Source: an uncultured delta proteobacterium
GTDB lineage: Bacteria; Desulfobacterota; RBG-13-43-22
Length of the DNA: 64,000 bases
Direction of reading: 5' to 3'
NCBI GenBank assembly: GCA_963743305.1
Contig: CAVUPH010000042.1
Location: 1 to 64,000, forward strand
The notes below the pieces were generated by a model. The model made no database searches, was not told the origin of the DNA, and saw nothing but the letters and a program-made list of their open reading frames with translations. Both the position numbers and the translations under genes were made by a program. The stretch's first letter is position 1. Every line of letters starts with the position of its first letter. Shown here piece by piece: positions 3,586 to 51,368 of the stretch.

Positions 3586-6500
3586 ATGTTGGAAAAAATC
3601 ATCGCCTTGGTGCTCAGACAGAAAGGGACGGTCCTGGTTTTCTCGTTGCTCCTCGTGGCCTTTGGAGTCTATTCCTATATCAAGCTTCCCATCGACGCCT
3701 TCCCCGATGTCACCAACATCCAGGTGGAAGTCGTCAGCCACGCCAACGGACTTTCCGCACTGGAGATCGAGCGTTCGGTGACCTATCCCATCGAAATGTC
3801 CATGCGCGGGCTTCCGAAGAGTCAAACAGATGCGCTCTGTCACCAAGTTCGGCCTTTCCCTGGTGACCATTGTCTTTGAAGACAGTGTCGATATTTACTT
3901 TGCCCGACAGCTTGTCTTTGAGAGACTGGCCGAAGCGAGGGAGAATGTCCCCAAAGGCGTCGAAGTCGCCATGGGACCCATTGCGACCGCCATGGGGGAG
4001 ATATACCAGTTCACGCTCGACGGCAAGATGCCCGATGATCCCCAGAAGAAAATCGAGTATTTGACGAACTTGAGAACGATTCAGGAATGGATCATCAACC
4101 CGCTGCTGAAAAGCGTTCCGGGAGTGAACGAAATAAATTCCTTCGGCGGGTATTTCAAGCAGTATCAGGTGATCGTTTCTCCCGACAGGCTCTTGAAACA
4201 TAACCTTTCCGTCGACCAGGTATACACGGCGATCGAAAAGAATAATCAGAATGCCGGCGGGAATGTGACTCGAAAAATACTCCGATCAGTATATCGTCCG
4301 GGGCGTCGGACTCATCAAGAATACGGCCGACATGGAGAACATCGTTCTCAAATCCTCCGGCGGCACGCCGACTTATCTGAAAGACGTTGCCGAAATACGG
4401 ATCGGGGAAGCCGTCCGGCAAGGCGCCGCCATGATCAACGGCAAGGACGAGGCGGTCGGCGGCATTGTCATGATGCTTCGGGGAGAGAACAGCCGCGAAG
4501 TGGTCGAACGGGTCAAGGAGAAGGTCAAAGAAATAAACGAGAACAACATTCTCGCCAAAGGGAATCAAGATACTACCCTATTACGATCGGTCCGATATCG
4601 TGAATGCCAGTGTCGCCACAGTCACCAAGGCGCTGGCTCGAAGGCGCCTTTCTCGTATTGATCGTTCTTTATCTTCTGCTGAGAAGCTTCAGGGCCTCCT
4701 TCGTCGTATTGATTGCCCTTCCGCTTTCTTTGCTGTCCACCTTCATCGTCATGAAGATAGTTGGATTAAGCGCCAATCTGATGTCTCTCGGCGGATTGGC
4801 GATTTCGATCGGCATGATCATAGACGCGACCATCATTCAGGTGGAAAACGTCCAGAGGCATCTCAGCGAAGACGCGGCATCGGAGCGCAAAAGCTACTAC
4901 CGTGCTCAAGGCGGTCCTCGAGGTAAGAAAGCCGAGCATCCTCGGCGAGTTGATCATCGCCATCACCTTTATTCCCATTCTGGCCCTGGAAGGGATTGAA
5001 GGGAAGATGTTCGGGCCCCTGGCCATGACGGTCGCCATCGCCCTTCTCTCGTCCCTGGTTCTTTCGATCTTCGTCATTCCGGTCTTGTGCGCCCTGATCC
5101 TGAAGCCGCAACCGGAAAAAGAGAGCGTCATCATGAGGCCTGTAAAGAAACTCTATCTGCCGGTGCTCAAGTACACCATGAAGAAGAGAAAACCGGTCTT
5201 GGCCACGGCCGGTGTCTTTCTTATCCTGTCCCTGGTCATTATTCCACGGCTGGGAACGGAATTCATACCGATCATGGATGAAGGGGCTTTTGATATGGAT
5301 GTATCTCTTCTGCCCGGCGTTTCACTGGATAAAGCCATGGAGATAAACAAACTCATAGGTGAAAAGCTAAAAACGTTCCCGGAATTGCAAACGGTGGTTT
5401 CCCGAACGGGACAAACCGGGGTGGCCCTGGACACGCGGGGTGTGGATAAGACCGGCTACGTCGGGGTGTTGAAGCCGAGAAAGGAATGGAAAAGCGATCT
5501 GAACCGGGAGGAATTGACCGGCAAGATGAGAGAGGCCTATAGAGGCCATACCGGGAATAGGATTTGGTTTCAGCCAGCCCATCCAATGCAGAATCGATGA
5601 ACTGGTGGCCGGAACGCGGGCCCAGCTTATTCTGAGACTTTTTGGCGAGGACATGGAGATATTGAAGATCGAAGGCGGACGAAATAGCGCGGGTCCTCTC
5701 CAAAATCGAAGGCGCAACCGATTTGCTTACGGAAAAGGTGACCGGGCAGTCGTATCTCACCATCGAGATAGACCGACCGAAAATCGCCCGCTACGGATTG
5801 AATATCAGCGATATCCAAAACCTGGTTGAAATCGCTATTGCCGGCAAATCGGCATCCAGGTTCTATGAGGAGAACAGGAGCTTCGATATTACCGTCCGCC
5901 TGCCGGAGGAAAACAGGAACTCGGTGGAGACCATCGGCAATATTCTGGTGCCGACGGCGGGCGGTTCGAATGTTCCCCTCAGTCAGCTGGCGAAGATCTC
6001 TCTCTCGGAAGGACCGGCACAGATAAGCAGGGAGGACGGCCTACGGAGAATCGGCATCGAGATGAACATAGACGGAAGAGACATCGGGGGTTTTGTCGCA
6101 GGAAGCAAAACAAAAGATAGCGGAAAAGGTGAAACTGCCTTCCGGATACTACCTCACCTGGGGAGGACAGTTTGAAAACCAGCAGCGGGCCATGGCCAAG
6201 ATGATGATCATCGGACCGGTGGCAATCGGACTGATTCTGCTTCTCCTCTTTGCCACCTTCCGATCGATAAAACCGGCCCTGCTGGTAATCCTCAATCTGC
6301 CCTTTGCCTTGATCGGCGGCGTGTTCTCGCTGTGGATTTCCGGTCTATACCTGTCGGTTCCGGCTTCGGTCGGGTTTATCGTGCTCTTCGGGGTCGCGGT
6401 GTTGAACGGGGTGGTTCTGGTGTCCCGCATCTCCCAATTGCGCGAGGAAGAGGGGTTGGAGTTGACGGAGGCGATTCTCAAAGGCAGCGCAAGACCGATT

Positions 6501-6702
6501 GCGTCCGGTGCTGATGACGGCCTCTATCGCCATTTTCAGTCTGATCCCCATGCTTTACGCCGGTGGAGCAGGTTCTGAAATCCAGAAACCGCTGGCCACT
6601 GTGGTGGTGGGGGGATTGGTGACCTCCACGCTTCTGACGCTCTTGCTCATCCCTTCCATGTACGGCTGGTTCGAGAAAAAACAACCTGAGGCTGAAATGT
6701 AA
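3586..6702 (+). CDS. czcA: CzcA/CusA heavy-metal efflux RND transporter; frameshifted
   Basis: LPIDAFPDVTNIQV, ANLMSLGGLAISIGMIIDA, EGKMFGPLA, RPVLMTA, SEIQKPLATVVVGGL. Confidence 0.93.
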
Positions 6703-9142: not shown

Positions 9143-10055
9143 CTAACAAGGCTTTCTGGCCTCAATATAGGCTGAAACGACATAATCAGCCGCATTTTTA
9201 CTTTTTTCCGGCTCCCACTCCCGGATTATTTCCTGGCTTTTGTCGTGAGGGATGACCCTGATTTCCCTGAAACCGGCCTTCCGCAGCATATCTTCGGTAT
9301 CTTGAATCGTGGCTGCACCCCCGATGCAAGCGCTGAGCAGGGCCAGATTGTTTTTGATGTCCTCCGGCAGGGGAGCTGTCGCCACGACGTCGGAGATGGC
9401 CAGCCTCCCTCCCGGCTTCAGTACCCTGAAGGCATCACGATACACCGCTCGTTTTATCCGGCGATAGGTTGATCACGCAATTCGACATGATAATGTCGGC
9501 CGTGTTATCGCCGACCGGCAGGTGTTCGATCTCCCCCAGGCGGAATTCGACGTTCGTGTGCTTGAATTTTTTCGGCATTTTTTCTCGCCTTGCTGATCAT
9601 GTCCGGCGTCATGTCCACACCGATGATGTGTCCCGTTTCCCCTACTTCCTTTGCGGCCAGGAAGCAGTCGAAACCACCGCCGCAGCCCAGATCGACCACC
9701 GTCTCTCCGGGTTTAAGGGAGGCCAGCGCCACCGGGTTCCCGCAACCCAGCATCATGTTCGCCCCGTCGGGAGCGCTGTCTAAATCCTTCTGGGAATAGC
9801 CAAGGTTCCCCATGTAAGCGGCCATTTTTTCAACGGAAAAATCCACCGCGCCGCAGCAGGATGCCTCTTGCCCGGAAGCGGCATCGGTAGCCCCGCAGCA
9901 TGACACCAGAGGGAAGAGCGTTCCTTTGAATATCGCTTGTCGAACAACACGACGCGGCAGATCCAGGTTTCGGGTGTGTCGTTCCCTGCCTTGGCGATGC
10001 TGCCGTAGCGGTCACGTACGGTTGCCCTTATTTTTTCTTTTTCCATCGTTTCCAT
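9143..10055 (-). CDS. arsM: Arsenite S-adenosylmethionine methyltransferase; frameshifted
   Basis: [12 protein letters not shown] repeats, [63 protein letters not shown]. Confidence 0.92.
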
Positions 10056-10069
10056 TGATTAATCTCCTT

Positions 10070-10397
10070 TCAATTAAAAAAATTCTTTAAGGCCGCTACG
10101 GCCTCGGGATCGATAAAATATTCGATTTTTTGCCCGTTCCGCTTCATTCTGATCAAGCCGGCCTGACGCAATTCCTTGATATGATGAGATAATGTGGAAG
10201 GAACGATCCCGAGGTCCTGGCCGAGGTCTCCCACACATGTGCAAACGTCCGGACCGGAATTCGATTTTTCCGGAATGCTCCACACGGTTCCAGGAGAGCA
10301 ACACGAAATTAGTCGCAGGAAAATCCTCAACCGGTTCGGGTTGGAAAGGGCTTTGAACATTCCGGCAAAACGCTCAATATTTTCATATATTCGACAT
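10070..10397 (-). CDS. arsR: ArsR/SmtB-family repressor; probable frameshift just after the start
   Basis: FKALSNPNRLRIF, CC and CTCVG, PSTLSHHIKELRQAGLI; directly upstream of arsM. Confidence 0.88.
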
Positions 10398-10434
10398 ATT
10401 TCGAATAATAATATTTTCTTGAAAATATTTCAAG
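10388..10434. promoter_or_regulatory. Two inverted repeats over the arsR start/promoter (ArsR operator candidates)
   Basis: TATTCGA-N6-TCGAATA (10388-10407); CTTGAAA-ATA-TTTCAAG (10418-10434). Confidence 0.6.
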
Positions 10435-10514
10435 GGAAAAAAGTAAATCGCGATTGGAGCTCTCCGCTGAAGCCTGACCTTGGGCCAGGGGGAATCGATA
10501 TCCCTTACCAAGCC

Positions 10515-10538
10515 GGCGGGCGGGGACGCCCGCCCTAC
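10515..10538 (-). repeat. GTAG-type REP palindrome
   Basis: Minus strand GTAG-GGCGGGCG-TCCC-CGCCCGCC. Confidence 0.6.
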
Positions 10539-10613
10539 GTTTTTCAAGAATTTTTTAGAAATTATTTGCTACAATAACTGGCGCTACCAAATTTTTCGGG
10601 TTGGGAGGAGAAA

Positions 10614-11042
10614 ATGGGAATACCGAAAATACTTTTTCTGTGCACCGGCAATTCCTGCCGCAGTCAAATGGCCGAAGGCTGGACCAAGGGCCTCAAAGGC
10701 GATCAACTGGAGGCTTATTCCGCCGGGATCCAACCGAAGGGCGTGGACCCCCGGGCGGTCAAGGTCATGGACGAGGCCGGCATTGATATTTCCGGGCAGA
10801 AGTCCAAGGACATCGACTCCCTGGGCAACCTGGAATTTGAATACGTGGTCACCCTCTGCGACAACGCCCGGGAGTCCTGCCCCTTCTTCCCGGCCAAGAC
10901 GAAGCGGGTCCACATGGGATTTGAGGACCCGCCCCTTTTGGCCGACGGCGCCGCGTCAGAAGAGGAGGCCCTGGTCCCTTACCGGCGGGTGCGGGATGAA
11001 ATCAGGGCTTTTGTCGAATCGCTTCCGGAAGGCCTCGGTTGA
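10614..11042 (+). CDS. arsC: Thioredoxin-coupled arsenate reductase (LMW-PTP fold)
   Basis: FLCTGNSCRSQMAEG, VTLCDNARESCP, FEDP, RRVRDEI. Confidence 0.92.
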   Translation: MGIPKILFLCTGNSCRSQMAEGWTKGLKGDQLEAYSAGIQPKGVDPRAVKVMDEAGIDISGQKSKDIDSLGNLEFEYVVTLCDNARESCPFFPAKTKRVHMGFEDPPLLADGAASEEEALVPYRRVRDEIRAFVESLPEGLG

Positions 11043-11190
11043 ATGGAATCTATCAGATATGCGGGATTCTACTTATTACCCTACCATCACCCAGAAGCCA
11101 CCCGCGAAGCATGAAAATTTAGGATTAGTTAAATATCAAGGGCACCCATAAATGTTGTGGCAGAAAATCCTAAATGAGGAGGAACGTAAA

Positions 11191-11322
11191 ATGCCGTCAG
11201 GAAAGGAAGTCAGACCGGAAAAGTGGGGCGAAGTCTTGGAACTGTACGACGACGGGAATTATTCGGCTATCTGGAGTTCATATGACGCTTTGAAGACCCA
11301 GAAGCGCCCCGAGTTCGATTAA
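11191..11322 (+). pseudogene. Short 43-aa ORF, probably a truncated hypothetical gene
   Basis: SD GAGGAGG then MPSGKEVRPEKWGEVLELYDDGNYSAIWSSYD...; its tail overlaps the convergent flavoprotein gene. Confidence 0.35.
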
Positions 11323-11678
11323 CCGCGCGCCCAGGTTCCTGGCCGATTCGATAGCCTCCGGGTCATCCGCTATTTCTCCCACCGCAAAAGCCCGGCCATG
11401 GACCCCTCGGTTGGCCGGTATCATCTCGTGTTCAGGAAAAAGGCCTGAATCGCCGTTATCGCGCTTTCCGCGCCATCTCTCCGGCCCACCACGACGGCGC
11501 CGCCAATCCTATTTCTCAGTTGCCCTTTGATGCACCAGGTGCGATCCATAAATATCTTGAGCTGCCCGGATACATTATTGATGAGGAAATCTCCTCCGGT
11601 TACGGATAAGGTTTCTTTCAGCAGGTAATCGGTGTTGCTGTTTTTCCTTGGGCTTCCGGAAATATACAAGACCTTCAT
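11278..11678 (-). pseudogene. Iron-sulfur flavoprotein/flavodoxin family gene with internal deletion and a frameshift
   Basis: ISGSPRKNSNT joined directly to NNVSGQLKIFMDR; the Cys cluster and GSPVY segment are absent; C-terminus HEMIPANRG... is in a shifted frame. Confidence 0.65.
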
Positions 11679-11709
11679 ACAAGATGCTCTTTCTTAAGCC
11701 TTGGCTATC

Positions 11710-12021
11710 TTAGACAGGGTTATTGGGTCGGTTGACTTCGTCCACTACCCGGCGGACGTCAGCCAGGCATCAGCGACCTTTCGGGTTTTTTGCGGCACAG
11801 TCACACCCACCGGCTTTCTTTGCGGCGGAGATCTTTTCCAGAATCAGGGAACGGCCATTCTTGATGAAATCCTGTTCGATATCCCGCCTGGTATGACCGA
11901 AACAGTAACAAACAAGATCGGTGGTCTGTTTTTCCTCGGGAATCCGGTCATCGGGACGACCCCAAGCGACCGGTATCGGTGCTGTCGGCACAATTAGATT
12001 AATTTCTTTCGCTTTTTTCAT
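11710..12021 (-). CDS. Putative selenoprotein, CopZ-associated/BFD-like [2Fe-2S] metallochaperone domain (...CDCAAKNPKGR-U-CLADVRRVVD...)
   Basis: VCYCF and CxCxxxNPxGxCC family motif with TGA (11770-11772) at the first Cys of CC; frame open to TAA at 11710; strong hairpin follows. Confidence 0.85.
11733..11761 (-). promoter_or_regulatory. Bacterial SECIS element candidate
   Basis: UGAC-GUCCGC [CGGGUA] GUGGAC-GAA-GUCA; loop begins 18 nt after the UGA with G at position 2. Confidence 0.75.
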
Positions 12022-12052
12022 AAGGTCGCCGAGTGACGGGAGAGCAGGATTC

Positions 12053-13212
12053 TTACTTTTTGGCCTCTCGAACCACTCCTCTGGCTATCCCTACTAAAAG
12101 CAGGAGGAAAAGTCCATATAACCCATAAAAGGAGGCATACCCAACGGAGGAAATTATTCTCCCTCCGATGGCCGTGCCTACGCCGCCGCCGCCCATGAAG
12201 CCGAAAGCCACCAAGGACATGGCGGTACCCCGGGCCATCTTGGCGAATTCCGTCGCGATGGTGATCAGACTGGAATGGGCCAGCATGAATCCAATACCCA
12301 ATAGGGCGATGGCTATGACCAACAGCACGGGTTGTGTAGTGACCGAGAATAGAAGACCATCGGCGATTACGGCCGAGAGAAGGCCAAGACTCAAGGTATT
12401 CAGCCGGCCGATTCGTTGCGCGATTTTTCCCACCAAGCGACCGGTAATCACCGCCCCGGCCCCGAAGGCGGTCAGGATCAAGCCGATAACAAAATAATTA
12501 TAGCTGAAGAGGTATTCGGTATAGGCCCCCAGAGTAGGAAAAAGAGCCGATGATCAGGATACCTTCGAGGAGAACGACGATATAAACCCAAAGACTCCGC
12601 ACATTACGCAGCAAGTCAACATAGGGCTTGAAAAAGCGACTGTTCGGGTTTTTCTTGGAGTGGGCCTGACTACCGACGAGGATCAACAGCAGGGTGGAAA
12701 TAACGGAAAGGGCGGCATAAGTGAAAAAGACCCCCCGCCAACTGACGAAATAGGCAATGGAGCCCCCCACCGCCATGCTCAATCCTTGCCCCAAAAAAGC
12801 GATTCCCATAAAGGTGCCGATGGCCTGCTGACGCCGCTCCATCGGAATCACATCCCCGATCAAGGCCAGTGAAATGGGCATGACCGAGGCCGCAAAAACG
12901 CCGGTGACGGCCCGGTACAGGGCCAGGTCAAAAAGGCCGAGGCCAAGCCCGCACAAGGCCGTGCCGACGGTGAAGAAGATCATGGAGAAGGTGATCACCG
13001 GTCGTTTTCCATAGCGGTCGGCCAGTGGTCCAAAGACCAACTGGAAGAGGCCGAAAGGGATCATATAGGCGCTGATCAACAGTCCGGCCCGAACCGGAGA
13101 AACCTGTAAGGACTTGGCAATAGCCGGGAGGATAGGGGACACCACCCAGTTGTCGGCCATGACCACAAAACCGGCCAGGCCCAGATATTAAAATAAGGCG
13201 ATTTTCATTCAT
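12053..13212 (-). CDS. MFS transporter; frameshifts near 13180 and 12520
   Basis: GPLADRYGKR motif A, multiple TM segments, ARGTAMSL; ATG overlaps the CDF stop codon. Confidence 0.85.
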
Positions 13213-14189
13213 TTCTTTTCCTTTTCCAATGGCTGTTTTTGGAGTGGTAACGGACCCTCCTGTGCGCATAGGTTGCACAAAAGATCCATGGGGGCATAGC
13301 CTTCCGTCTCAAACTGCAAAATGGGGTGATCGACTTTAAATCGGCGGTAGAGCAGCTCCCGGACCCGGGCGGCTATTTCATCCACCTTACTCAGTGGCTG
13401 GTCGGGTACAATGATATGGGCCGCCAAAGCGATACTTCCTGAGGAAGGGTTCCAGACATGGAGATGGTGCATGCCCTTAATACCTTCTAATGCCTCCACC
13501 TCCTGTTGTATGGATTGGAGATTCATGCCCGGAGGGGCGGCATTCATTAATATGAGCAGGGCCTCTTTAATAATTCCCCAGCCGCTATAAAGGATCAAGG
13601 CGACGATAGCCCAGGAAATCAGAGGATCGAGCCAGTACCAGGGACGGAAGATCCAAATTACGCCTAAAAGTGCCACGCCGATGGAAGTCAGGGCATCGAC
13701 GAGCATATGCAGGAAGGCCCCCCGCAGATTCAGATTTTCTTTCGCTCCGGAGTGCAATAGTAAGGTGGACAGGCCGTTGGCCGCAAAAGCGGCCAGGGCC
13801 ACCCAGATGACGATCGTTCCTTGAATAGGGACAGGATTTTTCAGGCGGCCCCAACCGGCTGCGGCGATATAAAAGGCGGCCCCGAAGAGGAGGGCCACAT
13901 TGAAGACGGCGGCCATCACCTCCACCCGCCGATAGCCGAAGGTTTGGTTCAGGCTGGGTCCTCGACCGCCGATCTTCAGGGCGGCATAACTGATCATCAA
14001 GGAGGTCAGGTCGCTCAGGTTATGCAGGGCATCGCTGATTAAGGCCATGCTGCCCGCTATGATCCCGGCATAGATCTCGATCAAGGGAATGATCAGATTC
14101 AGGATCATGGTCAGGATCAAACGCCGGCCCCAGGGGATTTCCGCTTGATTATGATTATGAGACCCTATTTCCAAGGCCGAGCCCTCCAT
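13209..14189 (-). CDS. czcD: Cation diffusion facilitator (CzcD/ZitB)
   Basis: SMALISDALHNLSD, TFGYRRVE, NLRGAFLHMLVD, HHLHVW. Confidence 0.92.
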   Translation of the reverse strand: MEGSALEIGSHNHNQAEIPWGRRLILTMILNLIIPLIEIYAGIIAGSMALISDALHNLSDLTSLMISYAALKIGGRGPSLNQTFGYRRVEVMAAVFNVALLFGAAFYIAAAGWGRLKNPVPIQGTIVIWVALAAFAANGLSTLLLHSGAKENLNLRGAFLHMLVDALTSIGVALLGVIWIFRPWYWLDPLISWAIVALILYSGWGIIKEALLILMNAAPPGMNLQSIQQEVEALEGIKGMHHLHVWNPSSGSIALAAHIIVPDQPLSKVDEIAARVRELLYRRFKVDHPILQFETEGYAPMDLLCNLCAQEGPLPLQKQPLEKEKK

Positions 14190-14896
14190 CACGAAAAAAA
14201 GAAGGGGTTAATGATAAAATAAATTCCCAGCATTCCGATAAGGACCCCGGCCAGGCGGCGGAACCATTGGCTGCCGGTCTGCCAGGACCGGTTTTCAACC
14301 ACTTTGCGGACGGCGGCGGTGGAACTCCCGGCAATGACGATGGGCAGGCAATGGCCGACGGCGAACAGCAGGATCAGCAGCAGGCCGAAGGACACTTCCT
14401 TCTGCACGGAGATAATGGCCAATATCGGGGCGATAAAACCAAAAGTGCAGGAACCGGAAAGCACCCCGTAGGCCAATCCCAGGATCAGTGCCCCGAAGAG
14501 ACCTTTCAACTTAAGGCGGTATAACAGACTGCCGGACATGGAAAACTTTTCCACTCCCAGCATGCCCAGGGCCACCCAGATCAGGATCACTCCCACCAGG
14601 ATCTGCCAATAGTTGCCGATATCGCCCAGTATCCGGCCGAGCAGCACGGAGATGACTCCAATCAGGGCAATGGTAATAAAAAGTCCGGTGGTGAAGATTA
14701 TGGAATAATAGCCCGCCTGCCGGGGCTGGAGGACCCGCTCCTGTCCTCCCACATAAGCCACGATCAAAGGGATGGAAGCCAGGTGGCAGGGGCTGAAGAG
14801 GACGCTGACCATACCCCAGAGAAAAGATCCCCAAAAGGCGATAGCCGTTCCCCCGGCCAGCCATTCGTTGATGGTCAGGAAAATTTGCTCCATCAT
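14189..14896 (-). CDS. ccdA: CcdA/DsbD transmembrane disulfide-interchange protein
   Basis: LFSPCHLASIPL and GSCTFGFIAP Cys motifs; about 6 TM segments. Confidence 0.88.
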   Translation of the reverse strand: MMEQIFLTINEWLAGGTAIAFWGSFLWGMVSVLFSPCHLASIPLIVAYVGGQERVLQPRQAGYYSIIFTTGLFITIALIGVISVLLGRILGDIGNYWQILVGVILIWVALGMLGVEKFSMSGSLLYRLKLKGLFGALILGLAYGVLSGSCTFGFIAPILAIISVQKEVSFGLLLILLFAVGHCLPIVIAGSSTAAVRKVVENRSWQTGSQWFRRLAGVLIGMLGIYFIINPFFFS

Positions 14897-14899
14897 CGG

Positions 14900-15286
14900 T
14901 TAATTGACCCCTAATTTTTTGAGAACGGCGACGATATCTTTTTCGCTCATGAAGCCTTCGTGGCGATAGACCTCTTTGCCTTTTTTATCGTAAAAAATCT
15001 GGGTGGGGATCACCCGGATCTTGAAGGGCTCGGCCCCGTCCGGATTTTTCCAGACATCGACAAACACAACGGCCGCCTTGCCCTGATAGACTTTTTCCAG
15101 TTTTTCCAGAATGGGCGCCATCATCTTACAGGGAATGCAGGAGCCGGCGCCCAGGTCCACCAGTGTGACCATTCCTTTGACCGGGATTTCCGGGGAAGGC
15201 CCGGCCCAGGAAGGTCCCACTCCCAGTATAACCAAAAATCCGATCAGGAGCACAACCCCAAGTTTTTGATAAGGCAGATTATTCAT
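14900..15286 (-). CDS. Exported thioredoxin-family protein
   Basis: Signal peptide, DLGAGSCIPCKMM, IPTQIFYD, RHEGF. Confidence 0.9.
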   Translation of the reverse strand: MNNLPYQKLGVVLLIGFLVILGVGPSWAGPSPEIPVKGMVTLVDLGAGSCIPCKMMAPILEKLEKVYQGKAAVVFVDVWKNPDGAEPFKIRVIPTQIFYDKKGKEVYRHEGFMSEKDIVAVLKKLGVN

Positions 15287-15321
15287 CTGTAATTTTCCTT
15301 CCTTTCAAATCATTCCGGCCA

Positions 15322-16242
15322 TCAATTGGTGAGACCCAATTGGGCAAGTTTTTTTTCGATTTCCACCTCGGGGAAAAAGCCGGAATGGCGGAAAACTTCG
15401 GTTCCGGTTTTATCAAAAAAGACCTGCACCGGGACGAACCGGATTCCAAACCGGGTGGCCAAGAACTGTTCTTCTTGAACATGAACGAAAAACACATTTA
15501 ATTTTCCCTGGTATTTCTTTTTCAGTTTGTCCAATATGGGGGTCATCAGATCACAAGGGCCGCAGCCGGTGGAGCCAAAATCCACCAGGCTCGGTTTCCC
15601 GGACAGGCGCAATTTGTCCACCGGATGGTCCCGGGCCAGAAGGGCCTGTTTTTTAATCCAGGACTCGTCCACATAAATCGAGCTTCGCCGGGACAAGGTC
15701 TGGATGTAGCTTTCCATCGCTTTTTTCTGTTCCTGCTGGAGAAGGACCATCCTCAATATGCCCCTGACCTCTTCCAGGGGCGCTCCACCGAAAGAGGACT
15801 TATTTTCCTCATAGGAGCGGATCAGGTCTTCCTCGGACACCTGGATGTTTTTCACCTTTTCTCCGAGAAAGTCGCGAATCATCTGAGTTTCGTCTTTGGT
15901 CTTTTTATGCCCGGCGGCCCGGGCTTCTTGAAGCACAAGAGCATTGGAAGCCAAGTTTTCCAGAAGAAAAACTTCGTTTTTCTTGAGTTGCGCCTGGAGG
16001 GGGGCGGGTGCCTTGTTAATGGTTTGCGCCAATTCGGCCGCTTTGATGGTCACTTTATCGACGGTCAGGAGCGTTCCCGGGGGCAATTTGGCCAGGTAGG
16101 CCGTTTTTAAAATACCGTCAGCCAATCCGGGATAGGTCGCCTCAACGGTTTTGTGATCCTGGGCCAGGGCATTTTGGAAGAACCCGAGAGTTAAAAACAG
16201 GAACGTCGTAAAGACCGCAGGGCCTATTCTCGGGAAGGGCAT
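15322..16242 (-). CDS. Exported protein with helical (SurA-N-like) region and C-terminal thioredoxin domain
   Basis: Signal peptide; DFGSTGCGPCDLM, VPVQVFFD, RHSGF. Confidence 0.8.
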   Translation of the reverse strand: MPFPRIGPAVFTTFLFLTLGFFQNALAQDHKTVEATYPGLADGILKTAYLAKLPPGTLLTVDKVTIKAAELAQTINKAPAPLQAQLKKNEVFLLENLASNALVLQEARAAGHKKTKDETQMIRDFLGEKVKNIQVSEEDLIRSYEENKSSFGGAPLEEVRGILRMVLLQQEQKKAMESYIQTLSRRSSIYVDESWIKKQALLARDHPVDKLRLSGKPSLVDFGSTGCGPCDLMTPILDKLKKKYQGKLNVFFVHVQEEQFLATRFGIRFVPVQVFFDKTGTEVFRHSGFFPEVEIEKKLAQLGLTN

Positions 16243-16330
16243 CTTTTTTCCACCTTTCTGATTTTGTATTTCCGATTTATGGAAGCACCGGCCAGGGTTA
16301 TCCGGACTGGTGCCTTTGATCTGTCACGTT

Positions 16331-16537
16331 CTAGCCACAGCAGGACGAACGGGAGGCGTCTGCCAGTGCCAGGGGGAGAATGATCTCCTGGACCTGAGAT
16401 CGGGGCCAGGGTCAGGTCGGGGCGACGCTGGCCCCGGTCGCTTTGGCGGCCTGATTGGACAACTCGGCCACATTCGAGCCACCCAAATGGGCCGGGATCA
16501 TGATATTCTCGGAAGGGGCGCAGCAGTTTTCAACCAT
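16331..16537 (-). pseudogene. Degenerate, internally deleted DGC-domain (putative zinc-binding) gene
   Basis: SD GGAGGAG; MVENCCAPSENIMIPAHLGGSNVAELSNQAA resembles DGC start ACSGGSNVGQLSNQAA; in-frame TGA, then ends SSCCG-TAG; the DGC core is missing. Confidence 0.6.
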
Positions 16538-16556
16538 AACGGCTCTCCTCCAAAAT

Positions 16557-16790
16557 CTATGGTTTAATCCACTTCAAAACTTCTTCTTTTTTCGGGATTT
16601 TTCCCATGGATCTAACCTGCCCATCCACCACCACGGCGGGCGTCCCAAAAACCCCGTAGCCGGCTATCTCCTTAATATCGGTCACTTTTTCAATTTCGGC
16701 CTGAACCCCGCTAGCGGCTACGGTTTCTCTAACTATCTTTTCCGTCTGCTGGCACCTCGGACAACCCGGCCCCAAAACCTTGATTTTCAC
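16557..16790 (-). CDS. Small redox-active disulfide protein 2 (MTH895-like thioredoxin)
   Basis: SD AAGGAGG plus GTG; KIKVLGPGCPRC, YGVFGTPAVVVDG. Confidence 0.92.
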   Translation of the reverse strand: MKIKVLGPGCPRCQQTEKIVRETVAASGVQAEIEKVTDIKEIAGYGVFGTPAVVVDGQVRSMGKIPKKEEVLKWIKP

Positions 16791-16903
16791 GGAATAACCT
16801 CCTTGGAGAATGACCACACCGCATGCTTTCTGATGGGGCCATTCGCGAATAAAAATTATATAATAACTATATGCCTATCAAGTTATAATTTCAACAAAAA
16901 AAT

Positions 16904-17230
16904 TTATAAATGGGAAAGGATTTCCCGCTGCTCCCGGGCTTGATTTTTGAGCATCAGAGAAACTCCATTGATCAGACCCAGGACTTCTTTGTTTTTAATC
17001 CAATAGAACACCCGCAGGCCTTCTTTTCTGGAGTCCAGGATCCCGGATTGCTTAAGGATGGTCAGGTGTTTGGAGACATTCGCCTGTTCCTGGTCGATAG
17101 CCGGGAAAATTTCACAGACGCAGCGTTCGCCGTTTTTCAATAAATCCAGGATCTGCAGCCGGGTAGGCTGTCCCAGGGCTTTGAGAAAAACCGCCTGGTT
17201 TTCATAGACTTTCTGTTGAATATTTTCCAT
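16904..17230 (-). CDS. ArsR/SmtB-family repressor
   Basis: KALGQPTRLQIL, ERCVCEI, QANVSKHLTILK. Confidence 0.92.
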   Translation of the reverse strand: MENIQQKVYENQAVFLKALGQPTRLQILDLLKNGERCVCEIFPAIDQEQANVSKHLTILKQSGILDSRKEGLRVFYWIKNKEVLGLINGVSLMLKNQAREQREILSHL

Positions 17231-17289: not shown

Positions 17290-17318
17290 AAAAAAGGGGT
17301 GTGAAACCACCCCTTTTT
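17290..17318. terminator. Bidirectional intrinsic terminator ending the sulfur-relay operon
   Basis: AAAAAAGGGGTG-TGAAAC-CACCCCTTTTT. Confidence 0.8.
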
Positions 17319-17341: not shown

Positions 17342-17917
17342 TTATTCCTGGGGGATGCACTCCTTATAGTAGGATTTGTAATCCACGAATTCCCGGTCGT
17401 GGATCGGCCCTTTTTCCTTGAAGGGGTGGCCGTATTCCTCCACCTTGAAACGGCCCATGAAGCGATTCACCAAAGGATGCCCCAGTTTCATCCATTCCAC
17501 GACGCCGCCTTTGGCCCAATACACGTTCTTGTAGCCATACTTATACATCAGGGCCGTGAAGTAAGCGGAACGGTGAGCGGTTCGGCAAAAGATCCAATAT
17601 TCGGCGTTGGCATCGGGAAAGCGTTTGGGCAGGGTGTAGACATGGGACAGGGTCACCAGGTTGGTACCCTCGATATGCCCGGCATCGAACTCCGGATGGG
17701 TGCGGGCATCGATTAATATGGCCTTGCTCTTCCCGGCCTGGACCTCCAGCCAGACCTTGTTCAGGTCGGCCATTGTTTTAATTTTATCTTTGGGAATGGC
17801 CTTTTCCAGATCGGCCTTAAAGGCTTCTTCACCCTTGGTTACATCCTGGGCAGGGGAAAGGCCCGTAAAAGCAAAAAAGACAAACAAGAGACTCAGTACG
17901 CTAATTATTTTTTTCAT
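17342..17917 (-). CDS. Exported rhodanese-domain sulfurtransferase
   Basis: Signal peptide (..SPA-QD), IDARTHPEFDAGHIEG, active loop FCRTAHRS, KGGVVEW. Confidence 0.88.
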   Translation of the reverse strand: MKKIISVLSLLFVFFAFTGLSPAQDVTKGEEAFKADLEKAIPKDKIKTMADLNKVWLEVQAGKSKAILIDARTHPEFDAGHIEGTNLVTLSHVYTLPKRFPDANAEYWIFCRTAHRSAYFTALMYKYGYKNVYWAKGGVVEWMKLGHPLVNRFMGRFKVEEYGHPFKEKGPIHDREFVDYKSYYKECIPQE

Positions 17918-18027: not shown

Positions 18028-18648
18028 TTAACATCCTTCATCTTTTAAAATCTTAAATCCACCCGGGGCCGGGGCGGGGGCTGGGGTCACCGGTGCCGCC
18101 GGCGCCGACGGGGCGGTTACCGCCGGTTTTTTGGGCTCCGCCGGTTTTTTGATTCCGGGGGCCGGGTAAGGCTTTTCTTTGGCGCCCGGTTTTTTTACCT
18201 CCGGGGCCGGATACGGCTTTCCCTTCCCGGCGGGGGGAATGGCTTTCCCCTTGAGCATTTTATCGAACAGAGTCGCCCCGTCAACGGCCGGGGCTTTAGG
18301 GGACGCCAGTTCTTGGGTCGCTTCCACTGGGGGGGCGCTGGAGAGGACAATTTTCCCATGATTCTTGTACTGCTCCCCTACCGTGTAAAAAAGGCTCAAG
18401 TCATAATATGACCAGGCTTTTTGGGAAGTAGGATCGGCCTGTACGGCTTTCCGAAAAAAATCCTTGGCCTCACTATATTTGGACCGGCTGAAGGATTCCT
18501 GCCCTTTGCGCAGCATTAAAGCGCAACGTTCCGGATCCACCTGAAGCGTTTGGCCGGTTCCGGAAGTCTGGGCATAAGCCCATTCCAAGCCCCACCCCAT
18601 GAGCAGGATGATCGCCAACCCCAGTACGAATAATTTCTTTTCAGCCAT
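18028..18648 (-). CDS. Exported TPR-like protein with long Pro/Ala/Lys-rich tail ending in ...ILKDEGC
   Basis: SD GGAGG; signal peptide (AYA-Q); GQESFSRSKYSEAKDFFRKAVQADP TPR-like segment; low-complexity tail; terminal Cys. Confidence 0.8.
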   Translation of the reverse strand: MAEKKLFVLGLAIILLMGWGLEWAYAQTSGTGQTLQVDPERCALMLRKGQESFSRSKYSEAKDFFRKAVQADPTSQKAWSYYDLSLFYTVGEQYKNHGKIVLSSAPPVEATQELASPKAPAVDGATLFDKMLKGKAIPPAGKGKPYPAPEVKKPGAKEKPYPAPGIKKPAEPKKPAVTAPSAPAAPVTPAPAPAPGGFKILKDEGC

Positions 18649-18680: not shown

Positions 18681-18854
18681 TTACCACCAGCTAATAACCT
18701 TATCATTGGAAAAAATCAATTCAACCAGTCGGTCGTAATCTACCGGCCCGGGGTAGAGGGGAAACCGAACGGCCTCCTGCCCTTCCGAGAGGATGGCGGT
18801 CAGTTTTTCCACATCCGGTGTGGGTTCGGACCGGAAAATGTGTAATACTTTCAT
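18681..18854 (-). CDS. 57-aa DsrH/TusB-like protein (absent from the ORF track)
   Basis: MKVLHIFRSEP...VDYDRLVELIFSNDKVISWW; C-terminus matches the DsrH-like DY..LV.L......VISW pattern; follows dsrE/F-like genes. Confidence 0.75.
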   Translation of the reverse strand: MKVLHIFRSEPTPDVEKLTAILSEGQEAVRFPLYPGPVDYDRLVELIFSNDKVISWW

Positions 18855-18877
18855 AAGAATCCTTTTCGTTAAATTCG

Positions 18878-19162
18878 TTAAAAGGGAATAATGAAGTCCA
18901 TCTCTTTTAGTCTCTCCCCCAGTTCCCCGATGGTGATGGGCTTAAAACCAAATTTTTCCACATTGGCCGGGATATTGGAATAGTATTCTCCTTCCATGTC
19001 AATAAACCAGTCCAGGTTCTCCTGGTAGGCCTCGGTCATCTCCACTTCGTGATCCAGGACCACCATGGTGACGAAATTATTTTCAATGACCAGACCCAGG
19101 CTGGAGCGCATCCCTTCCCACAGCTCATCTTTGGTTCGCACCAGAAAGGCTACTTTTTTCAT
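18878..19162 (-). CDS. DsrF/TusC-like protein
   Basis: KKVAFLVR...EGMRSSLGL...MDFIIPF; no Cys; position between dsrE-like and dsrH-like genes. Confidence 0.65.
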   Translation of the reverse strand: MKKVAFLVRTKDELWEGMRSSLGLVIENNFVTMVVLDHEVEMTEAYQENLDWFIDMEGEYYSNIPANVEKFGFKPITIGELGERLKEMDFIIPF

Positions 19163-19172
19163 AGTTTCTCCT

Positions 19173-19481
19173 TCACATCACCAGGTAACGGTCGCAGTCT
19201 TCGATCATTTCACCATGTCGGGCTTGAGTGGCGAAACCGGTTTCATCCATACCGGGAACAGTTTTACCCTTGAGCCCCTGGGCTTCAAACCCCACATTGC
19301 AGACCGCGTATTTGGCGTGGCCGACCAATTCCTGAAATTCCGGTTCCTGGGTCAACAGAACTCCTTTGTGCGAGAAAAAGAGAGTCACCTCTTTCCCGGC
19401 CCGTTCGGCCGCTTTGGTGATCTCAATTACGTGGCGAAGATGCCGGTCGGAGTTTACAAAAATTCCTAATTTTTCAGCCAT
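19173..19481 (-). CDS. DsrE-family sulfur-relay protein
   Basis: GKEVTLFFSHKGV, AVCNVG Cys, MIEDCDRYLV. Confidence 0.8.
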   Translation of the reverse strand: MAEKLGIFVNSDRHLRHVIEITKAAERAGKEVTLFFSHKGVLLTQEPEFQELVGHAKYAVCNVGFEAQGLKGKTVPGMDETGFATQARHGEMIEDCDRYLVM

Positions 19482-19496
19482 TTCTTTATCCTTTAA

Positions 19497-19733
19497 TTAC
19501 TTCTTCTTAACATAAAAACGGACAAATCCTTCGTCCTGCTTTTCTCCCAGAAACTCGTTACCGGTCCGTTTGGTCCAACTGGGGAGATCATTCCGGGTTC
19601 CCGGGTCGGTGCTGAGGATTTCCAGGACCTGCCCGGATTTTAAATTGTCCATGGTCTTTTTGGTCTTCAGGACCGGCATGGGACAGCTCAGCCCCCGGGC
19701 GTCCAAAGTTTCATCGGCCTTCACTTCTTCCAT
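19497..19733 (-). CDS. tusA: TusA/YeeD sulfur carrier
   Basis: LDARGLSCPMP, GQVLEILSTDPG. Confidence 0.93.
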   Translation of the reverse strand: MEEVKADETLDARGLSCPMPVLKTKKTMDNLKSGQVLEILSTDPGTRNDLPSWTKRTGNEFLGEKQDEGFVRFYVKKK

Positions 19734-19822
19734 AAAATTACCTCCTTAGGCTATTCCATTTGGTCTGTCTGGTTTATTTAAAGGATTTATTGGGTCTTAA
19801 CGCTTTGCGCCAGCCCTTTTTT

Positions 19823-21010
19823 CTATAATCCAACTGTGAATTTATTGGTTTCTTCGTTCCAGGTAACTAAAAGATACCACAATAAAAGGATCCCTGCAAT
19901 AAAGAGCAGGCTTCCGCCCCAGCCGAAAACGTCCGGCAGGAATATGGCTCGGCCCAGTTTCTGCCGCCAACCGGTACTCCGTAAAAATGCGGTGCTTAAG
20001 GAATTAAAAGTGGCAAAGGTCAGCAGGGCGGCCCATAATTTGAGCTGGCCTTCGCCCACCCGCCAAAGGGTCCCGCTTCCGCACCCGCCGGCAATCACCA
20101 TGCCTATGCCAAATATCAGCCCTCCGAAGAGGGAACCTCCCCAAAAAGCCGGGATGACATAGGTGCTTTCCGCACGAACGCCAGTCCATTTGAGTACGGC
20201 TACGCCTAAGGAACCCAGGATGATGCTCAAGGCGATGGCCTTGGCGATCCCGGCTTCCCCGGTCATGAAGGGATCCCGAAAAGCCCGGACAAAGCAGAAG
20301 CGGCACCGTTGCAGGATGATGCCGAAGGCCGCCCCGAAAAGGAGCAGGCCGCCGATTTCCGTGTAGGCCCGACCGGCATACCCATAAGCCCAGAGGATCA
20401 ACCCCAGGAGTACCAGCACCCCCAGATAGGGCTGAACGGACTTCCAGTCAAAGCTTTTTTTCCCTGGTTTGGCCGGGGGGACAAAGCCGGCTTTGGACGG
20501 GAATTTTTCCAGTTCCCAGAGCAGGTACTTGAGCCCGATAAAGGCACCGATCATCAGGCCGATCAGCATGGGGAACGCGCTAGCCGAAAGGTTGATCAGG
20601 GGGGTGTAGAAGGCTCCCACGTTGCAGCCGATGGCCAAGGCCGAGCCGACCCCCATCAGGGTTCCACCCGCCAGTCCTTTGATCATTTCCAGAGGCGGGG
20701 CCCAGCGAAAGGCAAATTCCTTGGCCATCAGAGCCGATCCGAAGGTGCCCAGGAGGAAGCCGATATCCATCACGGACCCGGAAAACAAGATAGGGTTCTC
20801 CGGCCGCGCAGGATAGAGGCCGAGCCCGTAAAAAAGCCAGTCGGCCCAATTTCTAATCCCGCCCACGATACCCCAGGGACGGGACCAGGCCACGATCAAA
20901 ATACTGAACAACCCCAGGAGCAGGCCCCCGGTGAGGGCCGGCCACTGGGCGTAGAAAACGGCGGCATATCCCTCTTTGAACTTATTTTTTAAAACGTTTT
21001 CTTCGGCCAT
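19823..21010 (-). CDS. yeeE: YeeE/YedE sulfur-compound transporter
   Basis: AIGCNVG, QRCRFCF, AGGCGSG Cys motifs; polytopic membrane protein. Confidence 0.92.
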   Translation of the reverse strand: MAEENVLKNKFKEGYAAVFYAQWPALTGGLLLGLFSILIVAWSRPWGIVGGIRNWADWLFYGLGLYPARPENPILFSGSVMDIGFLLGTFGSALMAKEFAFRWAPPLEMIKGLAGGTLMGVGSALAIGCNVGAFYTPLINLSASAFPMLIGLMIGAFIGLKYLLWELEKFPSKAGFVPPAKPGKKSFDWKSVQPYLGVLVLLGLILWAYGYAGRAYTEIGGLLLFGAAFGIILQRCRFCFVRAFRDPFMTGEAGIAKAIALSIILGSLGVAVLKWTGVRAESTYVIPAFWGGSLFGGLIFGIGMVIAGGCGSGTLWRVGEGQLKLWAALLTFATFNSLSTAFLRSTGWRQKLGRAIFLPDVFGWGGSLLFIAGILLLWYLLVTWNEETNKFTVGL

Positions 21011-21221
21011 GGCTTCCTTCCTCAATTAACTCAGTGATTCATCATGGATTTTCGGATTTTGGCCTTAAATTTTAAAATTATAATGCTCAAAGCCGCCATT
21101 GTCAAATTTTCAAATCTGGTTTACAAGCCTCTCTTTTTTTAGTAAGACGAGACCACTCCCTAATAAAACCTCCGGATTTGCGAGGGCGCTTTGGGGCACG
21201 GAAATAAAGTGTGACCAAAAT

Positions 21222-34816: not shown

Positions 34817-35960
34817 TTAGACCCATTTGCGGATTAAGTCCTTTTTCGTTTCTGCTACCATTTTGCTACCATCCTTCACAAAAATGGCATTTTCCAGCCG
34901 CTGAACGGCCTCTTGATTGGTGGGTTTCAATAGGTGGGTATAGACGTTTAACGTCACCGTCGGGGAAGAGTGCCCCAACTGGGTTTGAATGTATTTGACG
35001 TTCTCCCCCTGCTCGATCATCAAAGAAGCGTAGGTATGCCGAAGATCGTGAAACGTTATCGTCGGTAACTTGGCTTTCTTCAAAGCAGGAAGGTAATACC
35101 GTCCAACAAGATTGTTCCGGCTCATCATGTTTCCGGTTTCGGTGGGGAATATCGAGCTTATCTACGTCTTTACTGAAAAGAGACTCCAGCCGCCAGCTTT
35201 CTTAACTCCCTGACCACAACCGGGGACAAATCAATCCTCCGGTTGGAAGTCGTCGTCTTGGTAGGGAACAACCGGCCATCTCTCCCGGTCCGTTGAATAT
35301 GGACTTGTTTCTTCTCAAGGTCCAGGTCCCCCCATTGCAGGGAAAAGATTTTCGTCCCTGCCTTGCGCCGGTCATTACCGCAAATAGAAAAAGGGTTCGA
35401 TACATTCCGGTCGGGGTGTTCTCTAATAACTGGCCAACCTGCTCCGGGGCCAGTATTTGCATTTCCCGGCCTTCGTGCCTTACATCCCTTGGCCGTTCGG
35501 TATCCCGGAAGCGGGTTACTGTTCGAAATCACCTGTTCTTCACCGCATAGGCTAGGACTTGCCCCAAAGTGACCAGCACCTTGCGCAGGGTGGCAATGTT
35601 CATCTTCTTTGCCTGCCTATCGGTGATATACTTTTCCAAAACCGGAATGGTTATTTGGCTGATCTTCAGAGGGTCCAGGTCGGTAAAGTGTTTCCTGATA
35701 TGAACATCCAATACCTCCCAATAGGTTTCCCTGACTTTCGGTTTCTTATAAGCCAGCCAATACTTGGCAACCTCGGCAAAGGTCGGTATATCCGCCTTTG
35801 GTAAATAGGTTTGGTCCTCTACCTGCTCAAGTATTCGCTTCATCTCCCGTTCAGCGTCGTCCTTCTTCATGCCCTTGCGCAGGGTCTTCCAGCGTCTTGC
35901 CCCGGTATGATCCCGAAAGTCAACTACCCATCTTCCGCGCCTTTTTACGATACAGGCCAT
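34817..35960 (-). CDS. int: Tyrosine recombinase/integrase; frameshifted
   Basis: N-terminal arm-binding region, AVMTGARQG, FHDLRHTYAS, QLGHSSPTVTLNVYTH. Confidence 0.92.
34852..34871 (+). repeat. Integrase arm-type site candidate (left copy)
   Basis: CTGCTACCATTTTGCTACCA, identical to 41251-41270; tandem TGCTACCA. Confidence 0.75.
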
Positions 35961-49201: not shown

Positions 49202-49367
49202 ATTCCTTATTAGAAACCTTTGGCCCGGCCAAAGTCAACTTGAAAGAGTTCCCCGGCCCCTGGGGGGCCTCTCAAAAGGAAGGAGCCCGGAAAAAGATTG
49301 GCGGCTTGATTAGGGACCCGGTTTGGAATATAATCGAGTTTTTCTTTGGAAAGGATCCACGAATAAG

Positions 49368-51363
49368 ATGGTCTATCGACTCCGCGCGCTGAGGTATTAT
49401 TTTTTGACGTTTCTGGTCCTGTTGTCGTCCGGGCTGGCCCTGGTCGGTAGCGGTTCGGTCCAGGCCCAGGAACCGGTGGTCCGCTATCCCCTGCTTCCTC
49501 CCCGGTACAGTTCCATCAAAGTCTTCGACGTCAAAGGGCGCTTTGTCGGGCGGATATTGTCGGAGAAACGCTACTGGGTGCCGATCGAACGAATCCCGGT
49601 TTTTCTGCAAAACGCCCTGGTGGCCATCGAAGACGCCCGATTCTATGAACACAGCGGAATCGATTTCAAGGGCATTGCTCGGGCACTGATGAAAGATGTC
49701 ATTAAGGGCCGAATGGCCGAGGGCGGATCGACCATCACCCAACAGTTGATCAAAAACAAATACCTCTCCCAGGAAAAAACGCTCCAGCGCAAAGTGAAAG
49801 AGGGACTGCTGGCCATGGAGTACGAGCGGAAATATTCCAAGAAGAAAATTCTGGAGATGTATTTCAATGAAGTTTTTTTCGGCAACGGGGCCTGGGGCCT
49901 TGCCCAGGCGGCGCGCCTGTATTTTGACAAGAATCCCGACGAGTTGAATGAGGCGGAGTGCGCCCTCCTGGCCGGGGTTCCTAAAGCCCCGACCCGCTTC
50001 AATCCCTTGGGCGAACCGACCAAGGTGCGGGACCGGCGGAATCTGGTCCTGCGGCGGATGGTGGAGCTGAAGATGATTTCCTCCGCCCTAGGCGGAAGAC
50101 TGATGGCCAGCCCGGTCAGCATTATCAAGCCGGGGGAGGCCCCCTACTATATGGACCATATCCGTCAGAAACTGGCGGAGCGTTATGGACCGGAAATCCT
50201 GGAAGGGGGGGGGGCTGGAGGTCACCGCCTCCCTGGACCTGGACCTCCAGCGTCTGGCCGAACGGGTGATCAGCGAAGGGGTGAAGCGTCTGGCGCCCGG
50301 CCTGCAGGGGGCCTTGCTCTGCCTCGACCCGGCTACGGGGGATGTCTTGGCCGTGGTGGGGGGGGTGGATTATAAAAGGAGTCCCTATAACCGGGCGTTC
50401 TACGCCAAGCGCCAGCCCGGTTCGGCGATCAAGCCGCTGATCTACGCCGCCGCCTTGGATGCGGGCCAGACCGCCAGCTCCCTGTGGAACGACACCCCGG
50501 TAACCTATAACAAAGGAAATGGGGAAAAATGGACGCCCTTGAATTACGAAAGGAAATTATACGGGGAAATCCCCTTGCGCCGGGCCTTGGCTTTTTCCAA
50601 CAACATCATCACCGTCAAGCTGCTGGAGCGCATCGGAGTCCCCTATTTTTTGGAATACGCTGCCCGGCTTGGCCTTTCCCTGCGTTCTCCCAACGATCTT
50701 TCTCTGGCCCTGGGAACGGAGGAGCTTTCCCTAAGCGATCTGGTTTTGGCCTATGATCCGCTGGCCAACCAGGGGGTCCGGGTGGAGCCCCGAATGATCC
50801 TCCGTCTCTACGATCGAAACCGGCAGGCCTGGTTGGAAAATCCTCCCCTGTCCATCCCGGCCATTTCTGCGGCCGAGGCTTATGTGATGACCCAAATGCT
50901 GAAAGATGTATTACTTTACGGTACCGCCAAATCGATCGCCGGGTTTGCCGGAGAACGTCCGGCAGCGGGCAAGACCGGGACCACGGATGATTACCGGGAC
51001 GCCTGGTTTGTGGGCTACACCCCCCAATTGATAGCCGGGGTTTGGGTAGGTTACGACCGGCCCCGGCCGGGGGGTCGGGGGTTTACCGGTGGAGCAATCT
51101 GCGCTCCCCTCTGGGCCAGGTTCATGCAGGGGGCCTTAAAAGACAAACCGGTGCTGGATTTTACCAGACCTCCCGGGGTGGTCTCGGCCTGGATTGACGT
51201 CCAGACCAATGCCCTGGCCAATAGCGGTTGTCCTAAGAGGCAGGAAGAGGTTTATTTGGCCGGGACCGAACCCACGGTCCACTGCCCGCTGCATGGCGGT
51301 GAGCCGATCGGTCCGTCGGGTTCCGTCGAGCGGGAGCCGAATAATCGTCCCTCGTTCTGGTAG
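49368..51363 (+). CDS. Class A penicillin-binding protein (PBP1A family); frameshift in a G10 run at 50205-50214
   Basis: EDARFYEH, GGSTITQQL, RQPGSAIKP, GKTGTT. Confidence 0.93.
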
Positions 51364-51368
51364 TTTTA

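Follow-up and report, generated by a model that had tools for sequence, protein, structure and literature searches.

An exported TPR protein with a conserved terminal EGC, candidate periplasmic sulfur carrier for the YeeE-TusA-DsrEFH relay of Desulfobacterota

The stretch of DNA analysed here (the window, 64,000 nucleotides from an uncultured delta proteobacterium) carries on its minus strand, at positions 18028 to 18648, a gene for an exported 206-residue protein with a single tetratricopeptide repeat (TPR), a disordered arm and a terminal DEGC. The family of this EGC protein is real, centred on the Desulfobacterota, without a curated model and apparently undescribed. Its sequence features make it probable that the EGC protein is a soluble periplasmic swinging-arm carrier of persulfide (sulfane) sulfur for the YTD relay (YeeE-TusA-DsrEFH type II) of these bacteria. 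This reading follows from a free, acidic, glycine-preceded terminal cysteine, a tether of arbitrary length, export, and ties to sulfurtransferases and to a sulfur transporter. From the anatomy, conservation, genomic context and natural fusions observed in the family we infer persulfidation of the cysteine, contacts with partners and a direction of transfer. The terminal cysteine would receive sulfur derived from polysulfide or thiosulfate from a periplasmic rhodanese and carry it as a persulfide. Cationic active sites would attract the acidic tip, which amounts to a small thiol tethered to a protein, and the arm would bring the sulfur to the periplasmic entrance of YeeE, from where it would move along the three-cysteine path of the transporter to the cysteine of cytoplasmic TusA. 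The EGC protein would correspond, in the periplasm, to YeeD/TusA, in a relay that may also run outward.

The reading frame closes with GGFKILKDEGC and a TAA stop, and the plus strand over the same interval has no open frame. The ATG start at 18648 is closely preceded by a GGGAGG ribosome-binding site; a longer version starting at GTG 18687 was rejected as it would overlap the dsrH gene. All parts of the protein are given here by their minus-strand positions. A Sec signal peptide (residues 1-26, boundary AYA/Q; 18571 to 18648) is predicted from the sequence, a hydropathy of 3.31 and a model helix spanning residues 2-24. The conserved three-helix core that comes next (residues 37-99; 18352 to 18540) consists of one TPR and a capping helix and bears Cys42, which together with Cys206 makes up the full cysteine content of the protein. 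The arm (residues 104-195; 18064 to 18339) is rich in Pro, Ala and Lys (57 of the 93 residues from 104 to 196) and disordered in the model. It includes two KPYPAP.[VI]KKP units (residues 144-154 and 159-169; 18187-18219 and 18142-18174) and leads to the conserved tail GGFKILKDEGC (18031 to 18063), whose Cys206 codon occupies 18031-18033.

The original prediction had named the signal peptide, the short TPR-like domain with one cysteine, the Pro/Ala/Lys tail, the KPYPAP.(V/I)KKP repeat and the terminal GGFKILKDEGC, all of which are real. Its flexible arm of about 100 residues is found in the window protein but does not describe the family, in which the Pro/Ala-rich, nearly Cys-free arm ranges from 26 to 112 residues and usually measures about 40-45. 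Because only the closest relatives have them, the long arm and the KPYPAP repeat are lineage-specific extras. A functional importance of the repeat was rejected, as it is missing from most of the family.

AlphaFold2, run with a 109-row alignment, predicts confident helices at residues 39-54, 58-71 and 76-97 and zero strands in the confident region, with pLDDT of 93-98 over residues 41-100; residues beyond 100 are structureless (pLDDT 53-66). TPR_1/2/8 of Pfam match residues 46-74, all below cut-off (TPR_1 E 0.0023), and no model of Pfam or NCBIfam scores above cut-off for the family. Foldseek finds no fold match in the PDB at E<=0.001. VIA-align returns generic TPR matches only, the best having a Z of 10.0, which is within the range usual for helical bundles, and an rmsd of 1.2 A over 59 residues. 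A sequence search of the PDB gives TPR proteins only among the best 60 of 116 matches.

Searching with the single sequence retrieves 74 proteins, 52 of them EGC-terminal. A profile search extends this to 641 proteins at E<=0.001; among the best 120 of the 641 there are 73 new proteins and all 73 end in DEGC, a count biased by a ranking that favours the tail. This bias was reduced by re-scoring 150 listed representatives of 50% clusters with a core HMM devoid of the tail, which led to dropping 63 representatives that scored below 50 bits, chiefly fragments and long proteins with several TPRs, and keeping 87. A cysteine is found within the last three residues of 77 of these 87 representatives. 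It is preceded by G at position -1 in 75 of the 77 tips and by E or D at position -2 in 74, and in 73 of them the final 8 residues carry a net negative charge; one tip ends in GGCG. Most of the ten representatives without a tip cysteine look frameshifted, truncated or chimeric, while P0157 ends in EEGG, which counts against a carrier. The database proteins P0060 and P0074 end in KDEG. Of 67 free (unfused) members tested, 66 have a hydrophobic leader. P0177 has two TPR-like modules ahead of its tail and in P0186 a YeeE motif is joined to the core, a junction that suggests a deletion.

In GTDB, scanning for a pattern limited to the core led to 91 confirmed places, of which the best 80 were analysed; nearly all of these records are titled as Desulfobacterota or deltaproteobacteria. 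These loci are phylogenetically clustered, not independent of each other, and biased to Desulfobacterales and Desulfatiglandales. The protein ends in EGC in 76 of the 80; two others run off the contig and two are truncated or chimeric. Tip codons for Cys and Gly vary synonymously across the 80 loci, and the 76 stops that follow the cysteine are distributed between TAA (26), TAG (26) and TGA (24). Among 722 neighbouring ORFs of at least 150 residues, a control set that includes some spurious ORFs, none ends in [ED]GC and seven end in C. The conservation of the terminal EGC exceeds chance. The expectation that a terminal (D/E)EGC would be kept while the linker varies is thus borne out in 76 of the best 80 of 91 loci and in 77 of the 87 representatives, with arms of 26-112 residues, and a loss of conservation of the cysteine, which would have spoken against the prediction, is not seen in those loci.

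In the window the EGC gene is sixth in a predicted operon of the order yeeE-tusA-dsrEFH(type II)-EGC gene-exported rhodanese, all on the minus strand. The first gene (19823 to 21010) codes a YeeE/YedE sulfur transporter with motifs around Cys129, Cys239 and Cys310. The TsuA and Pfam profiles align with its two halves in swapped order, the YedE/FdhT model colinearly. It is followed by genes for TusA (19497 to 19733; motif CPMP), for DsrE type II (the YTD DsrE-like protein; 19173 to 19481), for DsrF type II (YTD CHP1; 18878 to 19162) and for the 57-residue DsrH type II (YTD CHP2; 18681 to 18854). The DsrE assignment combines a weak Pfam DsrE match with likeness by eye to the DsrE rows in the supplement of PMC12998232, and the CHP1 and CHP2 assignments are matches by eye to the chp1 and chp2 rows of the same supplement. 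DsrE, CHP1 and CHP2 were identified as DsrEFH type II (PMC13293266, partial text). The synteny of yeeE, tusA, dsrE, chp1 and chp2 over 18681-21010 makes this a YTD cluster, with dsrE and the chp genes assigned by eye. The gene for DsrF type II (CHP1) is found in 35 of the best 80 of 91 loci in addition to the window. Downstream of the EGC gene lies the gene of an exported single-domain rhodanese with the active loop CRTAHR (17342 to 17917).

A perfect sigma-70 consensus (TTGACA-17-TATAAT, 12/12; 21077 to 21105) precedes yeeE and a strong hairpin resembling an intrinsic terminator (17291 to 17318) follows the rhodanese gene at the operon end. Both are on the minus strand and, as consensus matches, they make it likely that the seven genes from yeeE to the rhodanese gene form one transcript. 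Elsewhere in the window are an AcrB-family gene in five pieces (3830-6578), integrase fragments (34817-35960), and a split penicillin-binding protein and oxidoreductase (49323-52902); these broken genes are pseudogenes or result from indel errors.

The association with yeeE and rhodanese genes recurs across the best 80 of 91 loci. The next gene is yeeE in 58 of them (57 found by script, plus L017 with its 20-bp gap), mostly after a gap of 15-40 bp. A rhodanese gene is adjacent in 23 loci and both genes in 14, and yeeE, rhodanese, tusA or dsrEFH is present within 3 kb in 75. Linkage to yeeE is kept where tusA and dsrEFH are lacking, for example in L016, L020 and L034. Among 50 YeeE proteins taken from EGC loci and the window, the three cysteines never vary. 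At the genomic level the originally proposed link to the rhodanese and YeeE is favoured, their genes being the dominant neighbours and natural fusions to rhodaneses being found. TauE/SafE exporter genes follow yeeE in L034 and L053, and yeeE is frameshifted in L055 and L062. In L054, L057, L058, L061-L063, L065, L066 and L068 genes for HdrA-like, small HTH-like, 4Fe-4S, CCG-domain and DsrE proteins recur upstream of the rhodanese, on the same strand before rhodanese-EGC-yeeE.

Loci without yeeE fall into two clades of a quick tree (68 columns, most forks open) that was used only to place them. In the first (L001-L008 and L010) yeeE is not nearby in any of the nine loci, dsrEFH is found in two, tusA in six and none of them in three, with the EGC gene intact. 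The six that keep tusA (L001-L005 and L007) belong to the clade that includes strain NaphS2, and the related L006, L008 and L010 lack yeeE, tusA, dsrE and rhodanese within 3 kb; the pattern is an apparent stepwise loss of neighbours. A group centred on Desulfarculaceae has, of these sulfur genes, only a rhodanese of the window type. Such intact EGC genes with part or all of the context missing nearby also count against a carrier. Cultured bacteria that carry the gene include strain NaphS2 (L001) and Desulfocarbo indianensis (L072). L071 has no yeeE, and its EGC gene carries a foreign tail.

Two types of rhodanese adjoin EGC genes: a single-domain protein with a leader and the motif CRTxxR, and an exported triple-domain protein. 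Furthermore, five proteins fuse the TPR-arm-EGC module to two different rhodanese architectures. In P0209, P0228 and the partial P0237 the module is joined to the multi-rhodanese family that is also found upstream of free genes. P0293 (746 residues) combines in one chain ten CxxCH haem motifs, a tandem TST-type rhodanese and a TPR-arm-DEGC module, and P0205 is a fragment of the same kind (tandem TST-type rhodanese and module). P0293 is possibly, to judge from its domains, a self-contained periplasmic sulfur redox enzyme. No second leader or signal peptide precedes the module in the protein sequences of the five fusions, which argues that they are true fusions rather than read-through products. 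The AlphaFold2 model of P0209 has a disordered tail (pLDDT about 40, pTM 0.49).

The sulfur route to YeeE in Sox-less sulfur-oxidising or disproportionating Desulfobacterota is a gap, for which the EGC family offers a small soluble single-cysteine candidate. [quoted passage not shown] The YeeE-YeeD structure features a path lined by three cysteines of the transporter, the cysteine of cytoplasmic YeeD being the fourth (PMC11073785, partial text). Passage of sulfur from the SoxY cysteine to SoxT, an analogous YeeE-type importer, was proposed as conceivable (PMC11582611, partial text). It can be put forward tentatively, with rather less assurance than the carrier role itself, that the EGC protein is an independently evolved SoxY-like persulfide carrier of the periplasm and that anaerobes devoid of Sox use it as the so far missing donor to YeeE from outside. 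The cysteine at its end would be a 'zeroth' cysteine that extends the YeeE-TusA-DsrEFH-DsrC relay into the periplasm, and rhodaneses of the single-domain, the selenocysteine triple-domain or the decahaem-fused kind could load it interchangeably. Many nominal sulfate reducers would then gain a complete path for zero-valent sulfur from the outside to DsrC, the YTD cluster a periplasmic module, and hundreds of proteins labelled hypothetical or TPR a function. The candidate suits the mass-spectrometry assay of persulfide transfer that was already applied to TusA and DsrEFH type II.

Several observations temper this picture. Structural work on YeeE-YeeD found that free thiosulfate ions move through the cysteine path, so that YeeE would not need a covalent carrier (PMC11073785, partial text). 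The YTD clusters described in publications for cable bacteria and disproportionators, of five or six genes, have no EGC gene and the protein is therefore not an obligatory part of YTD. Thiosulfate did not persulfidate TusA, DsrEFH type II or DsrC of cable bacteria in vitro, which renders it a doubtful donor (PMC13293266, partial text). Complex prediction for YeeE and the mature form of its EGC partner (the homologous L056 pair, with 50 and 104 alignment rows) scored 0.00 twice, with controls not folded, and weighs neither for nor against binding. The swinging-arm sulfur carrier originally proposed is partly supported: conservation, context and fusions speak for it, persulfidation, partners and direction of transfer are predicted, thiosulfate is a doubtful donor, and a selenocysteine variant of the tip was not seen in the best 80 of 91 loci.

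The same context and conservation data would also fit a protein that works as an adaptor, plug or redox gate, its TPR body docked on YeeE or on the rhodanese. Its acidic Cys tip would then mimic the anionic substrate or form a mixed disulfide, protecting or regulating a cysteine of the partner with no bulk carriage of sulfur. TPR folds are interaction modules, the acidic tip could imitate thiosulfate, and genes for thioredoxin and thioredoxin reductase follow yeeE in several loci. A long arm that varies freely between 26 and 112 residues is better suited to a shuttle between sites than to a plug fixed in place, however, and the ties of the module to three types of rhodanese as well as to YeeE suggest a common substrate-like role. 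Such a gating function is unlikely, if still worth consideration beside the persulfide carrier.

A purely structural or parking disulfide would suit the exported location: Cys206 would be bonded to Cys42 or to a further subunit, and the periplasmic rhodanese would have the EGC protein as its scaffold. It could apply to many members, as 54 of 72 representatives have the body cysteine. The tip is nevertheless kept in the 18 of 72 that lack it, 16 of which have no cysteine in the 12 residues upstream of the tip either, and of 52 close relatives ending in EGC, 25 have C and 24 have S at the body site, which is unparsed in three. In 15 members a nearby upstream cysteine could pair with the body cysteine instead. 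The dispensable body cysteine argues that the terminal cysteine is not merely half of an internal disulfide, and a role limited to disulfide formation is improbable.

The cargo of the tip might instead be selenide or perselenide, delivered to YeeE so that these selenocysteine-rich bacteria can make selenoproteins. The best match of the window YeeE is indeed the selenium YedE/FdhT model, at 149 bits for a cut-off of 350. The gene of the upstream triple rhodanese, for which no NCBIfam model scores above cut-off, has an in-frame TGA at the CxxxxU position in 13 of 13 loci listed (L027, L040, L052, L054, L057, L058, L060-L064, L066 and L068; e.g. L060:415-1749), the site reading CGGPT-U or CEGMR-U, and Cys replaces it in P0209 and P0228. 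This exported enzyme is, on sequence grounds, a probable selenoprotein. At the tip of the EGC protein itself the suggested GU variant did not materialise: in the best 80 of 91 loci no TGA replaces the cysteine codon, which is TGT or TGC in 76, and a selenocysteine form of the tip was rejected. In addition, no sel genes are among the frequent same-operon neighbours of these loci, and TusA with DsrEFH type II, encoded alongside, forms a relay for which a flow of sulfur to DsrC has been demonstrated (PMC13293266, partial text). A selenium cargo is accordingly hard to credit.

Past the terminator, the window holds ArsR regulators, thioredoxins, a DsbD-type membrane protein and a CDF exporter (9500-17230), together with arsenate-reductase-like and methyltransferase-like ORFs recognized by eye. 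That the acidic tip chelates Hg, As or other soft metals, like the C-terminal Cys tails of detoxification proteins, gains some appeal from the ArsR/thioredoxin/CDF cluster but is very improbable, since that cluster lies beyond the operon and is not a frequent neighbour in the best 80 of 91 loci, and the tip has a single cysteine and no vicinal pair.

The carrier was said to be unrecognised, and the family does appear to be undescribed: besides the lack of a curated model in Pfam and NCBIfam, no description of it was found in searches of the openly accessible literature, with supplements covered for PMC12998232. The word 'tetratricopeptide' is absent from the main text of PMC13047784, PMC13293266, PMC8780430, PMC13490349, PMC9676032, PMC12998232, PMC12545173, PMC9751629 and PMC13188914, and its two occurrences in PMC8528874 are unrelated to the family. 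The window operon is a YTD cluster (YeeE, TusA, DsrE, CHP1, CHP2 and optional CHP3) and has the EGC gene inside, a gene that is not among the described components. Identity with CHP3 was rejected, as by eye the CHP3 rows in the part of PMC12998232 drawn on lack a leader, the QADP motif and an EGC end. Atlas clusters of the family are currently named 'tetratricopeptide repeat protein', and the EGC protein does share with TPR proteins a TPR-like hairpin plus helix and the structural match to TPR domains. It differs from them by its single repeat below the Pfam cut-off, three helices in place of a tandem array of at least three repeats, the family-specific core motifs FRKAVQADP and AWxYYD, and the near-invariant terminal cysteine.

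SoxY and DsrC carry sulfur on a cysteine at the end of a mobile C-terminal arm. The body of SoxY is an Ig-like beta sandwich and its arm has the motif GGCGG, while cytoplasmic DsrC combines a helical body with a short mobile C-terminal arm, a Gly-Cys end and a second body cysteine that is strictly conserved. The polysulfide transferase Sud has a rhodanese fold and mediates periplasmic delivery of sulfur to a membrane complex. Like the periplasmic anion-binding proteins Sbp/CysP and like Sud, the EGC protein would act in the periplasm to deliver sulfur species to a membrane complex; it has neither the solute-binding fold of the former nor the rhodanese fold of the latter, and its sulfur would be bound covalently to a cysteine on a tether. 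With DsrC/TusE it shares a flexible C-terminal arm that ends in Gly-Cys, the helical body, often a second body cysteine, and the overall pathway (PMC13293266, partial text). In contrast to DsrC/TusE it has a signal peptide and a low-complexity arm of 26-112 residues, its body cysteine is dispensable (present in only 54 of 72), and no DsrC match is found in Pfam or NCBIfam. The likeness to SoxY lies in export, in a substrate-binding cysteine that ends a C-terminal arm after Gly, and in the proposed feeding of a YeeE-type transporter, SoxT in the case of SoxY (PMC11582611, partial text). The all-helical TPR body of the predicted model, the acidic (D/E)EGC-COOH tip of most members and the neighbouring yeeE, tusA, dsrEFH and rhodanese genes set the EGC protein apart from SoxY; no SoxY match is found in Pfam at E<=0.1, and neither soxZ nor soxAXB is among the frequent neighbours of the best 80 of 91 loci, where some neighbour clusters are unannotated. 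The EGC protein is unrelated to SoxY and, if it is a carrier, would be convergent with it, a swinging-arm solution to sulfur transport that arose alongside SoxY and DsrC.
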